Source: Acidobacteriota bacterium
GTDB taxonomy: Bacteria > Acidobacteriota > UBA890 > WLXD01
Assembly (NCBI GenBank): GCA_965205505.1
Contig: CBDBHB010000009.1
Span: 192,001 to 256,000, forward strand
Direction: 5' to 3'
Length of the DNA stretch: 64,000 nucleotides
The notes under the pieces are model-generated. The model was not told where the DNA came from, made no database searches, and saw only the letters and a list, made by a program, of their open reading frames with translations. The position numbers and the translations under genes are program-made. Positions 25,794 through 32,541 of the stretch are shown here, piece after piece. Within the stretch, counting starts at the first letter, position 1. Each line of letters begins with the position of its first letter.

Positions 25794-28484
25794 TCAGGAG
25801 CGGAGCACGCCCACCGGGCTGACACTGGTCGCTCGACGCGCAGGGATCCACGCCGCCAGCAAAGCGATCGCAAGGCCGCCGACGCCGACGCCGATGAACA
25901 CTGCGGGATCGGTAGCAGAGACGCCGTACAGCAGCGAGCTCATCAGTCGCGTGGCGGCGAAGGCGGCGGCGAGCCCGATGGCGGCTCCGAGAGCCGCAAA
26001 CATCAGTCCCTGGGCCAGCACCATGCGCTGGATCTCTTTCTCGCGGGCGCCCAGGGCCATGCGAATGCCGATCTCTCGGCGGCGCTGCCCAACGGAGTAC
26101 GACAGCACGCCGTAGGTGCCGATGGCCGCCAGCAGCCCGGCCATGGAGCCAAAAGCGACGAGCAGCACCATTGTGAACCGAGTATCGGCCATGCCGACGC
26201 CGATGGCGCGTTCCAGAGTGCGCACGTTGAAGGCGACGAGCAGTGGGTCGATCTCGGCTATCTGGGTACGGATCGCGGTCATCAGGCCCGGTACATCGGC
26301 GGAGGTGCGCACCAGCTGGAACATGCTCCAGCGACGCTCGGCGAACTGTGTGTGGCTGAAGTACACCTTGGGGGTGGGCGATGACGAGCGCTGTCGTAGC
26401 AGCGTGTCGCCGACGATGCCGATGATCTCGCCGTCGTGACCGCCGGATCTGATCGTCTCGCCAATCGGGTTCGCTCCAGGTCCCTAGCCGTCCGCAACCG
26501 CCGCCTCGTTGAGATACACCGCCCACGGTGCGTCCAGCGTATCGTCCGGACCGAAGCGACGTCCCGCCAGCAGTGGGATTCCCACCAGGTCGAGATAGTC
26601 GCCCGAGATGACGCGGATGTTGGCGAGGTGGTAGTCCCAGCCCGAGTCGCTGTTCGGGTCGGCCACCCCGTACCCCCAAATGTTGTAGGTGCCAGTGACT
26701 GGCAGCCATTGAACCGCGCCGACCGCATCGACGCCGGGGATGCTAGCGACACGCCGTCGCAGCTCCTGGTAGAAGCCCTCACGTTCTTGCGCCGTGTCGT
26801 ATCGGGCCTGCGGCAGCCGTAGCTCGAACGTCGTAACGCCGCTCGGATGCACGCCGGTCTCACGAGTCTGCAGCAGCCAAAAGCTGCGCATCATCAGGCC
26901 CGCCCCGATCAGGAGCACGAGCGCCAACGCGACCTCGCTCACCACCAACGCGGACCGCATGCGGTTGGTGCCCCGGCTGCCGCTGTTGCCGCGGTCGTCC
27001 TCGCGCAACGCCGTCTCGAGGTCTTTCCCGGCGCTGCGAAAGGCGGGGACCAGGCCGAAGACGGCGGTTGTCAACAGTGAAGTGGTGAGCGCGAACGCCA
27101 GCACTCGCATGTCGAACGACATGTCGTTGATGAGCGTGAGGGACTGCGGCGCGAGGCGCAGCAAAGCGCGCGTCATCATCGCCGCCAACGCAACGCCCAG
27201 CACGCCACCGATGAGCGCCAATACGAGGCTCTCGGTAAGCAGCTGCCGAACCAGGCGCAGTCGCCCCGACCCGAGGGCGGCGCGGATGGCGAGCTCCTTG
27301 CGCCGCGTCATGCCGCGGCCGATCAGCAGGTTGGCGACGTTGACGCAGCCGATCAGCAAGACCAGCGCGGTGGAGCCGAGCAGCACCCAGAGCATCGTGT
27401 TGGCGTTGCCCACCGAGTCCTCTTGCAGCGGTTGGATCCATGCATAGCGTCCGTCGTTCGACTCCGGATACTGGCGCGCCAGCTCTTCGTCGAAGGCGGT
27501 GAGCTGCTGTTGCGCCTCGGCCAGCGTCACTCCGGGAGCGAGTCGACCAACGACCGTCATGTAGTGGTTGTCGCGCACGTTGAAGCCGCCGGGCGTCATG
27601 TCGTGTGGCACCCACACGTCGACGTCGTCGCCCACCAGATCGACGAAGGTAGCGGGCATGACGCCGACGATCTCCCAAGCCTCACCATCGAGCGTGACCG
27701 TGCGGCCGACGATCTCAGGATCACGTTCGAAGAGGTTCCGCCACAGTCGTGCCGACAGGATCACCACTCGGGAGTTGCCGTCCTTCTCGGAGCGCTCGAA
27801 CACCCGCCCGGTCATCGGACGCAAGCTGTAGACGTCGAAATAGTCCGATGTCAAGTAAAGTGCAGAGATTCGTTGCGGTGCGCCCTCGCCGGTGAGATCA
27901 AAGCCCATGGGGCCGTAGTTCCCCATCCCCGCCAGCGACTGGAACGTGCTCAGCTGATCCCGGTAATCGGCGTAGTCGAGGGGCGACACAACGTCGAAGT
28001 TTGTCGGGGCGCTCTCGAAGCCACCGCTGCGCGAGTAGTACTGATACACCCGCACCAGTCGGTCGGGCTCCGGGTAATCGAGCGGGCTCAGCAGCACTCC
28101 GTTAACTACCGAGAAGATGGCGGTGTTGGCGCCGATCGCCAGCGTCAGCGTGGCGATTACTACGAAGGCGAACAGCGGCTCGGCCAGCAGGCCGCGCACC
28201 GCAAACCGAATATCCGCTACCAGGTTGCCGATCACGTTGTGCTCACGACGGGGATCTCTCGGTAGACCGCCGCCCAGGCCGGCGGCCGGAAGCTTGCAGG
28301 CGAAGGCGATCGTCTGACGCCAGTACCACAACCAGGCTCGCAGCCTGCCGTGGGTATGTCGCAGGTGCTGGAATTCTTCTTGCAGATCGCCGAGCACGTC
28401 GCGTCTCGACGGTGGCGGCAGCAGTCAGGTGACGAGCGCCGTCGCCAGGTCCGGCGTCTTCCCGTCGCGTGCACGCCGGCTCAC
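25794..28484 (-). pseudogene. ADOP-type permease interrupted by two in-frame stops
   Basis: One frame from GTG 28484 to 25794 with TGA at 28425-28427 (LVT*LLP) and TAG at 26484-26486 (DG*GPG); permease motifs on both sides. Confidence 0.85.
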
Positions 28485-31128: not shown

Positions 31129-32541
31129 CTACATAGCGACGGGCTCGCCGGCAGCGTCCACCATGGGTAGCCCGGCGGCCGCCCACGCGCCCATGCCGCC
31201 GGTCACGTTGCGAACGTGACGGAAGCCGTTGCGCAATAAGACGCTGCAGGCAGTGCTTGATCGAGTCCCAACGGCGCAGAGCACCGACACGCGACTGTCG
31301 ATGCTCAGCTCGAGCTCGTCGATCCGGTCGGCGAGGAACTTGAAGTTCATGTAGTGGGCACCGTCGACGTGTCCGGCGTCCCACTCCGAGGTCTCGCGCA
31401 CGTCGAGCACCTGCATCCCGCCGCCGTTGGACAGCGCCGAGGCAAGCTCGTGGACGCTCATCTGCGGCAACGTCTCCTGCGGGCGCCCGGCGCGCAGCCA
31501 GCTTCTCATGCCACCGGCCAGATGCCCCTCGACCCGAGAATCCAGCCCCAGGAAAGCCATCGCGTGGAGGGCGCGGTCCGCCGCCTCGGCGTCGTCGGTG
31601 ACCAGCAGGATCGGCACGTCGGGTGGGATCACCCAGCCGACCCGCTGTTCGAACTCGGAGCTGCTCTGCAAGATGCTCATCGCGCCCGGAACGTGCCCGC
31701 CGCCGAAAGCGGCCGCCGATCGGGTGTCAATCACGAGCCGGCTGTCCTCGGTTAGCTCGGCAAACTCGTCGGCGCCCAGGGGGCGGGCCCGGGGCGGGTC
31801 CATCGTCAGCGGCCTTCTGCCCTGGTTGATCGCGACGATGTTCTCGATGTTGGCGGGGCGCGGCGGCTGGTCGGTGTTCATGTACGCGACAAACGCGTCG
31901 CGATTCTCGAACTGCAGGGCCGCGTTGTTGCGCTTCTCATACCCGACCGTGGTGACAACCTTGCCACTCGTTACGCGTCCTCACGTCGAGCCCGCTACAT
32001 GCCCCGGATAAACCTCGACGAAATCGGGGAGGTCACGGAACCGAGGTAGCGCCTCATCGAAGAGCGTTCGTGCCCCGTCCTCGCCATCCTGTGCGAGGTC
32101 CGGCCGCGATAGGTCGCCGACCAGCACGAAATCTGCCGTCAGCAGGCACCACGGGTCGGCGCCACGGTCGTGATCGAAGACCAGCAAGTTGATTTGCTCT
32201 GGTCGATGCCCGGGAGCATGAAAAATCTCCAGGGTCACCTCGCCCAGGGTAAGCCGGTCACCGGGTGCGACCCGCGTAGCCTCGTAGGTGATCTCGGCGA
32301 GCTCCGGCAGCACCAGCTCGCCGCTGCACGCGGCAGCCAGACGTCGCGCTCCGGACACGTGGTCCGCGTGGCTGTGTGAGTCGATGACGTAGCGGATGCG
32401 TGACGACTTGGACGCCGCCATGTGCAGATAGGGGTCGACGTCCCACAGGGGATCGAAGACGGCACACTCGCCGCTGGCCGTCGAGCCGACCATGTAGGTG
32501 ACACAGCCCGTCTCTCGCCTCAGGATCGACTCGAACCACAC
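31129..32541 (-). CDS. CstB-like persulfide dioxygenase (MBL fold) plus tandem rhodanese domains; probable selenoprotein, 470 aa, Sec at codon 187
   Basis: ORFs 31981-32541 and 31129-31881 share a frame and are joined by YPGHVAGST*GRVTSGKVVTTVGYEKRNN; HSHADH, PGH, GD; rhodanese CAVGTRS. Confidence 0.8.
31945..31980 (-). promoter_or_regulatory. Putative bacterial SECIS element
   Basis: mRNA GUGGCA-AGGU-UGUCAC hairpin (31967-31952) starting 13 nt after the UGA; possible lower stem GAC.CGU/ACG.GUC. Confidence 0.65.

Follow-up and report, generated by a model that had tools for sequence, protein, structure and literature searches.

A predicted selenocysteine form of a CstB-type persulfide dioxygenase-rhodanese encoded across a conserved in-frame UGA codon

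Introduction

Whether an in-frame TGA codon ends translation or encodes selenocysteine (Sec) is the question raised by a gene of an Acidobacteriota bacterium (contig CBDBHB010000009.1 of assembly GCA_965205505.1). The gene lies in a stretch of 64,000 nucleotides (nt; positions 192,001 to 256,000 of the contig), which is called the window throughout and whose numbering is used here. Its product resembles CstB of Staphylococcus aureus, a persulfide dioxygenase (PDO) with the metallo-beta-lactamase (MBL) fold that is joined to rhodanese domains, and its frame is broken by a TGA where CstB has a loop cysteine. Our analysis gives high confidence that this UGA, codon 187, is a Sec codon. It is also very likely that the gene is an intact selenoprotein gene, in which UGA would be translated as Sec by SelB and tRNA-Sec via a hairpin in the message, yielding a CstB-type enzyme of 470 residues and three domains. 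The data directly support that the UGA is conserved, that Sec and Cys pair at its column, that the hairpin is constrained, that the Sec machinery is present and that the catalytic residues are kept; from these we infer Sec insertion and every chemical step.

Results

A single frame with one internal TGA

The features of the gene are as follows, with the basis of each assignment in brackets.

31129..32541, minus strand: whole gene, CstB-like PDO with a middle rhodanese-like and a C-terminal rhodanese domain (frame, Pfam, PDB matches, model)
31981..31983, minus strand: in-frame TGA, predicted to be read as Sec (residue 187) and aligned with Cys201 of CstB (alignment column)
31951..31968, minus strand: hairpin resembling a selenocysteine insertion sequence (SECIS) (conservation, folding, model of the bacterial SECIS)
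31822..32541, minus strand: MBL-fold persulfide dioxygenase domain, approximately residues 1-240 (Pfam, PDB alignment, invariant columns)
31495..31782, minus strand: middle rhodanese-like domain, approximately residues 254-349, boundaries approximate (Pfam, alignment with 3tp9 and 3r2u, secondary structure of the model)
31177..31452, minus strand: C-terminal rhodanese domain, residues 364-455 (Pfam PF00581)

The gene constitutes one minus-strand frame (32541..31129) of 470 codons that begins with GTG at 32541 and terminates with TAG at 31131..31129. Its sole internal stop is the TGA at 31983..31981, in the context PGHVAGST*GRVTSGK. Pfam places the MBL domain before this codon; behind it lie two rhodanese stretches, and the stronger match covers residues 364-455. 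The initial annotation of the window had taken the MBL and rhodanese open reading frames for a single frame broken only by the TGA, and both the translation and the Pfam matches bear this out. The middle rhodanese-like domain, judged from its sequence, has no active-site cysteine, and the active-site loop of the C-terminal rhodanese is C422-AVGT-R427 (Cys codon 31278..31276); Arg382 also belongs to this domain. No NCBIfam model reached its cut-off for the protein and no selenoprotein model fits; NF040641 (bifunctional sulfur transferase/dioxygenase Blh) scored 33.5 bits against a cut-off of 625.

The TGA is also present in independent contigs. Those from four public runs, belonging to four studies, span the whole gene with 0-2 differences, none of them at the TGA; the TGC or TGT that, according to the initial annotation, would refute the Sec reading if seen in sequencing reads is absent from these contigs, which conceal rare variants and some of which may come from the source of this DNA. 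No RNA run was found among the public runs listed for the gene. Elsewhere in the window TGA is an ordinary stop, terminating 10 of the 25 long frames, and the selA, selB and selD genes of the genome contain no internal stops.

TGA and cysteine alternate at one alignment column

The read-through protein was searched in 60 related genomes and in the genome of the window itself, and 32 of these 61 had a match. A scan of a genome collection holding one genome per species retrieved 102 relatives, of which the best 80 (54-68% identity) were examined. In metagenomes, a scan whose query was an alignment of the closest Cys forms retrieved 273 relatives, and again the best 80 were examined. Seven loci were shared by the orthologue set and the genome scan, leaving 84 distinct genome loci. 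Two loci (L045, L047) were left out, as their matches lie at contig ends, are confined to residues 230-468 and so miss the column.

All 11 orthologues (61-100% identity, own genome included) contain exactly one TGA, and in all it falls at the same alignment column. The same holds for the column in the 80 best genome loci, every one of which has TGA there; they comprise 54 from Chloroflexota, 12 from Gemmatimonadota, 10 from Acidobacteriota and one from Krumholzibacteriota (a phylum is given for 77). Despite the Cys-form query, 66 of the best 80 metagenome loci also have TGA at this position, and the others have TGC (12) or TGT (2). Taken together, there are 157 TGA loci, or 150 once the seven duplicates are removed. 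The frame remains open behind the codon, with exactly one stop in the matched region of 90 of the 91 genome loci. Two of the distant homologues (L043, L048), for which one TGA was counted, were rejected as Sec forms, the TGA being their own terminal stop.

Cysteine occupies the column in more remote relatives, namely in all 17 distant genomic homologues (30-42% identity) and in all 114 listed homologues of the protein database that cover it. One of the 17 controls, L041, comes from an unpublished genome (G047) and also provides one row of the tree described below; no conclusion depends on it. Among the matches listed, the closest Cys forms (52-59% identity) have the motif AGSTCGRVTSGK in common. 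The Sec/Cys pairing that the initial annotation had proposed to look for is thus found on both sides, as TGA (11/11, 80/80 and 66/80) and as Cys (17/17 and 114/114). In several phyla of soil, sediment and wastewater, Sec forms of this subfamily are more numerous than Cys forms among the loci retrieved.

Because no full-length entry closer than 59% occurs among the database matches listed, Sec forms are apparently not annotated whole. Six entries of 264-292 residues (P0015, P0060, P0062, P0069, P0079, P0081) start just after the TGA; each is the product that a gene caller derives from a Sec form.

A FastTree tree of 134 rows, from which L049, a PDO-only form of 247 residues, and L063, with its two stops, were excluded, places the 90 Sec rows in one group in which five Cys rows are nested, with three state changes. 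We tentatively read this as one Sec clade with nested Cys forms; support is moderate, several branches are long, and no direction of change is claimed.

Within the genus of the window the Sec form is patchy. Two genomes (G002, G003) have it at 100% and 90% identity, two others (G000, G004) have a distant Cys form only, at approximately 39-40% identity, and one further genome (92% complete) gave no match. The presence of a near-identical gene in four phyla hints at horizontal transfer.

A hairpin behind the UGA is constrained at synonymous sites

The initial annotation had described a stem-loop, GUGGCA-AGGU-UGUCAC, 13 nt downstream of the TGA, and it is found at 31967..31952. The 5' arm, (A)GUGGCA, spans 31968..31962, the AGGU loop 31961..31958 and the 3' arm, UGUCAC(C), 31957..31951. 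Six pairs, one of them G.U, form in this genome; of 75 distinct relatives, 47 have a seventh pair at the outer end of the stem. At least six of the seven pairs are present in all 91 genome loci and in 64 of the 65 metagenome loci that could be evaluated (L213 could not, since it stops right after the TGA), whereas the 17 Cys-form controls reach five at most. These counts show the conservation of the hairpin in related genomes that the initial annotation had proposed to examine.

The consensus, AGU GGC AAG xUU GyC AC, is nearly frozen, and this conservation extends to positions that the protein leaves free. In 82 distinct genes with 168 conserved degenerate codons, an invariant third position is found only at codons +5, +6 and +7 relative to the TGA, which make up the 5' arm of the hairpin. 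Among 427 windows of six codons, that starting at +5 has the least third-position variation, and the same result is obtained from the 11 orthologues alone; directly outside the hairpin, third positions vary freely. Six Cys forms that retain the Ser-Gly-Lys peptide (L178, L187, L214, L218-L220) encode it with AGC, GGA or GGT, and AAA, and the hairpin is lost. The case for the hairpin is built on this synonymous-site constraint, tied to the presence of the TGA; neither covariation nor folding energy contributes to it.

The geometry of the hairpin was compared with the bacterial SECIS (bSECIS) model as drawn in Fig. 2A of PMC13188914, which specifies a loop of 3-9 nt, an upper stem of 4-16 base pairs (bp), a G in the first two loop positions, a distance of 16-37 nt from UGA to the loop and a minimum free energy of at most -7.5 kcal/mol. 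With a loop of 4 nt, a stem of 6-7 bp, a G as the second loop nucleotide, a UGA-to-loop distance of 19 nt and an energy of -11.7 kcal/mol, the hairpin fits all the constraints given in that figure.

The genome encodes the selenocysteine machinery and other UGA genes

The genome of the window is assembled into 9 contigs, 5.98 Mb in all, and is 96% complete. It contains selA (two identical copies), selB and selD, all scoring above curated cut-offs, and ARAGORN called a tRNA-SeC with anticodon tca. The set of Sec genes (selA, selB, selC, selD) that the initial annotation had suggested searching for, having found none in the window, is accordingly represented elsewhere in the genome.

The two selA copies (L001, L002; 516.6 bits each) lie on contig C6 at approximately 10.4-11.7 kb and 191.4-192.7 kb, on opposite strands. 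This duplication could be part of a large inverted duplication or an assembly artefact.

Two further genes of the genome carry UGA in frame. The alpha subunit of formate dehydrogenase (FDH; 1323 bits) has one in-frame TGA, as does a second FDH-like molybdoenzyme (L054) on contig C9 at approximately 1.5419-1.5440 Mb (...CAATUHAPTV...), which is located some 22 kb from the main FdhA gene and has the hairpin GUGGCC-GGUCU-GGUCAC. In both FDH genes a hairpin of the GUGGCC...GGUC type is found, whose 5' arm begins 12-13 nt after the UGA. The likeness to the SECIS of Escherichia coli fdhF that had been noted in the initial annotation is thus seen within the same genome.

The UGA column coincides with the substrate-carrying cysteine of CstB

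The closest PDB matches of the read-through protein are 3tp9 (E = 1.7e-68, residues 14-460) and CstB (3r2u; E = 2.6e-55). In both structures the TGA column is a cysteine, within AGSACG in 3tp9 and AGSPCG in 3r2u, and the expectation of the initial annotation that the TGA replaces the conserved loop cysteine of CstB holds, the codon being aligned with Cys201 of 3r2u. The following residues correspond in the PDB alignment.

U187-G188: C201-G202 of CstB
G184: G198 of CstB
C422: C408 of CstB
R427: R413 of CstB
R382: R370 of CstB

An AlphaFold2 model computed on 65 sequences has a mean predicted local distance difference test (pLDDT) score of 91.0 and a predicted template modelling (pTM) score of 0.87. 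Block 181-190, which includes the Sec loop, is one of the two least confident stretches (pLDDT 63). The fold matches 3tp9 best (TM 0.88 over the full length), followed by CstB (TMt 0.86) and then by ETHE1 and other persulfide dioxygenases. In the PDO domain, the putative metal-binding residues H56-x-H58-x-D60-H61, H112, D137 and H181 are invariant in the 65 sequences. Of the Sec loop, G184-S-T-U187-G188, the residues G184, U187 and G188 that are aligned with CstB above are likewise invariant, as are Cys422, Arg427 and Arg382.

The role of the corresponding CstB residues is described in a 2026 preprint (PMC12934615). According to it, C201-G202 mimics glutathione at a distance of 3.4 Å from Fe(II); the loop that bears it is flexible, with G198 as its hinge. 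Persulfidation of C201 is followed by its S-sulfonation, which depends on Fe and O2. The sulfonate then travels approximately 27 Å to the persulfide of C408 in the rhodanese domain, guided by R370 and R413, and the product, thiosulfate, leaves. Neither the C201A nor the C408A variant is active.

Discussion

Alternative explanations

One alternative is that UGA is read through as a standard residue (Cys, Trp or Gly), by near-cognate suppression or local recoding, and that no selenium is involved. The identity of the inserted residue cannot be told from sequence alone, and the Sec pathway can itself insert Cys under selenium limitation. We nevertheless consider this explanation very unlikely, as the genome holds the full Sec machinery together with UGA-containing FDH genes whose hairpins are similar, the hairpin behind UGA 187 fits the SelB-type bSECIS model in its published outline, and TGA is an ordinary stop elsewhere.

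A second alternative treats the TGA as a true stop in a conserved split gene, which would produce a 186-residue MBL fragment and a separate rhodanese, with the hairpin serving translational coupling or mRNA stability. Gene callers do divide the gene in this way, as seen from the six database entries of 264-292 residues that begin behind the TGA, and the absence of covariation in the hairpin also speaks for this reading. However, the stretch of 33 codons that separates the TGA from the next in-frame start (ATG, residue 221) encodes conserved protein that is part of the PDO fold. Nor does codon +3 offer a start, since it reads GTA or GTC in the 11 orthologues. A true stop would moreover drift among TGA, TAA and TAG, yet all 157 loci with a stop at the column have TGA and none has TAA or TAG, and the column is the invariant catalytic cysteine in all Cys forms. 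We therefore give the split gene very little credence.

A pseudogene, that is, a nonsense mutation in a decaying gene of a window in which at least one other gene (a MacB/FtsX-type permease, TAG at 26484-26486) has an in-frame stop, is next to impossible, because the comparative data contradict it: the TGA is not private to this genome but recurs in 150 distinct loci of four phyla or more, where the frame behind it is open and the protein sequence conserved, and synonymous sites are constrained at the hairpin only. The distinction that the initial annotation had drawn between this TGA and background decay is upheld by the same 150 loci.

The assignment of Sec to UGA 187 has to be weighed against several observations that speak against it or weaken its support. 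One genome locus (L063) has a second stop, and one metagenome TGA locus (L210) has a weakened stem with only 4 of 7 pairs. The energy of the hairpin, -11.7 kcal/mol, corresponds to z = -0.49, with 60 of 200 shuffles being at least as stable, and folding energy was consequently dropped as evidence. No pair changes on both sides and five of the seven never vary; the observed pairing and covariation are reached by 168 of 500 shuffles. In two Caldilineaceae loci (L074, L084), codon +6 is GAC in place of GGC (Asp for Gly) while its pairing codon, +9, is GUC, and an A-U pair is kept in the stem, but this is a single event in two close relatives and remains anecdotal. An Rfam scan of 31850-32050 with E up to 10 found no SECIS family, the only hit being a chance match to narK on the other strand. 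Co-occurrence with selA does not discriminate, since selA is present in 52 of the 61 related genomes, with or without the TGA form; it was not found in one genome with the TGA form (G023, 69% complete). The neighbours of the gene in the window are a ZIP transporter, a PadR regulator and frames without an assignment, with no sulfur genes among them. Finally, the mechanism of CstB that serves as the reference comes from a preprint (PMC12934615).

Proposed reaction cycle

With the UGA taken as a Sec codon, the most likely function is a CstB-like reaction cycle with selenium at the carrier position, a proposal that draws on the homology with CstB and is held with lower confidence than Sec coding itself. 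SelB and tRNA-Sec would decode UGA 187, guided by the coding-sequence hairpin 13 nt downstream. In the predicted product, a persulfide dioxygenase with non-haem Fe(II) is followed by a rhodanese-like domain that is inactive and then by a catalytic rhodanese. By analogy with CstB, the Sec-Gly unit on the flexible loop near the iron would take sulfane sulfur from a low-molecular-weight persulfide to form Se-S-H, and Fe(II) and O2 would oxygenate the selenium-bound sulfur to a loop-bound sulfonate. The loop would then swing to the rhodanese, where the persulfide of Cys422 would attack and thiosulfate be released. Relative to sulfur, selenium would make the loop residue both a better nucleophile and a better leaving group. 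A relay from Sec187 to the rhodanese cysteine had already been suggested in the initial annotation, and it would match the mechanism published for CstB in the portions of PMC12934615 cited above.

Such a cycle would involve the first Sec-dependent non-haem-iron dioxygenase, in which Se-S-H is oxygenated to a Se-sulfonate, an enzyme-bound intermediate that has not been described before; we put this forward tentatively and regard it as possible but rather doubtful. In a bolder version, the enzyme may handle selenium species as well, for example by making selenosulfate.

Gene neighbourhood and a second interrupted gene

In relatives, the gene is often accompanied by others. A PhsA-like molybdopterin oxidoreductase is found just upstream in 39 loci, a TorD-like chaperone in 36 loci and two YeeE/TsuA-like thiosulfate transporter halves downstream in 26-27 loci; all NCBIfam scores behind these neighbour assignments are under the cut-offs. 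The cluster is kept in many Chloroflexota relatives, e.g. L089 (2-2965), L123 (4790-5539), L134 (1663-2304) and L124 (1371-2864), and a SulP-STAS-rhodanese fusion is additionally present in 11 loci, a pyridine-nucleotide disulfide oxidoreductase in 9. The gene context of the relatives fits thiosulfate chemistry.

The window contains another interrupted gene. A MacB/FtsX-type permease of approximately 867 codons (25797-28397, minus strand) has one in-frame TAG at 26484-26486, and with X placed at this codon a second FtsX domain is recognized behind the stop (residues 748-861). The TAG has the look of a genuine nonsense mutation or else of a fault in the assembly, and it probably belongs to the other premature stops mentioned in the initial annotation. 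A scan of the window for interrupted genes based on GC content at third codon positions (GC3) was noisy and missed the target gene, and no count of broken genes was drawn from it.

Novelty and significance

The initial annotation knew of no characterization of this family as a selenoprotein, in agreement with Table 1 of a 2026 review (PMC13188914), where no MBL-fold or persulfide dioxygenase family appears among 119 prokaryotic selenoprotein families and subfamilies. No relevant mention of an MBL protein or dioxygenase was found in the text portions covered of deep-Sep (PMC12013277) and BSepDB (PMC13326102), whose supplementary lists might include the family, nor in those from the GOS (Global Ocean Sampling) selenoproteome paper (PMC2398784) and Peng et al. 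2016 (PMC5029168). A full-text literature search brought up only SelTryp, and a prior entry in candidate lists may exist. Both the enzyme type and the recoding mechanism are known, but their combination is not on record in the literature covered, and the data point to a widespread selenium-containing enzyme form that is missing from the bacterial selenoprotein catalogues covered.

If the assignment is correct, a widespread family with 150 distinct loci, from Chloroflexota, Gemmatimonadota, Acidobacteriota and Krumholzibacteriota, would be added to the bacterial selenoproteome. Because gene callers halve the gene, both the sulfide-oxidation capacity and the selenium dependence of these uncultured groups would be under-annotated. 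The exchange of Sec for Cys would be a natural one at the very residue that the 2026 preprint, in the portions cited (PMC12934615), names as the covalent substrate carrier of CstB, and would offer a ready test of the CstB mechanism and of the benefit of selenium in persulfide and sulfonate transfer. As a method, the combination of a Sec/Cys column with frozen synonymous sites would reveal bacterial selenoproteins that catalogue-based searches miss.

Comparison with known systems

SelTryp, as outlined in PMC1557815, is a selenoprotein of kinetoplastids in which an MBL fold is combined with two rhodanese domains, and resembles the predicted protein in joining these domain types. It differs in being eukaryotic, in its eukaryotic-type SECIS and in the position of Sec, which lies in a C-terminal CxxU tail instead of the MBL domain's active-site loop; the two belong to different families. 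The protein studied here ends in ...GEPVAM, with no second UGA and no CxxU motif.

Five forms of rhodanese-like selenoproteins listed in Table 1 of PMC13188914 are, like the present family, bacterial, associated with sulfur-transfer chemistry and matched by Cys homologues. As far as that table describes them, they carry Sec in a rhodanese Sec-related motif (UxxS, UxxG, CxU or UxxxxU), whereas here the rhodanese keeps its Cys and the predicted Sec lies in the dioxygenase domain.

The hairpin resembles the SECIS of FDH genes (the E. coli fdhF/fdnG type and the FdhA gene of the same genome) in lying within the coding sequence, 12-13 nt after the UGA, and in its small apical loop, where a G precedes G or U. 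Its AGGU loop and family-specific stem set this putative SelB-binding element apart.

The beta-lactamase and rhodanese domain protein of Alicyclobacillus acidocaldarius (3tp9) is the best full-length match in sequence and fold. It shares 32% identity, has Cys (AGSACG) at the column and is functionally uncharacterised.

The closest functional counterpart is CstB of S. aureus. The predicted enzyme differs from it in having Sec in place of Cys201, by way of UGA and a SECIS-like hairpin, in an overall identity of approximately 29% and in a window without the cst operon context (cstR, cstA, sqr). The two proteins share the order of their three domains, their fold and the loop motif H-x-A-G-S-x-[C/U]-G-[K/R], and the glycine hinge, the rhodanese cysteine and both arginines of the positive 'wall', as these are described in the CstB preprint, are all kept.

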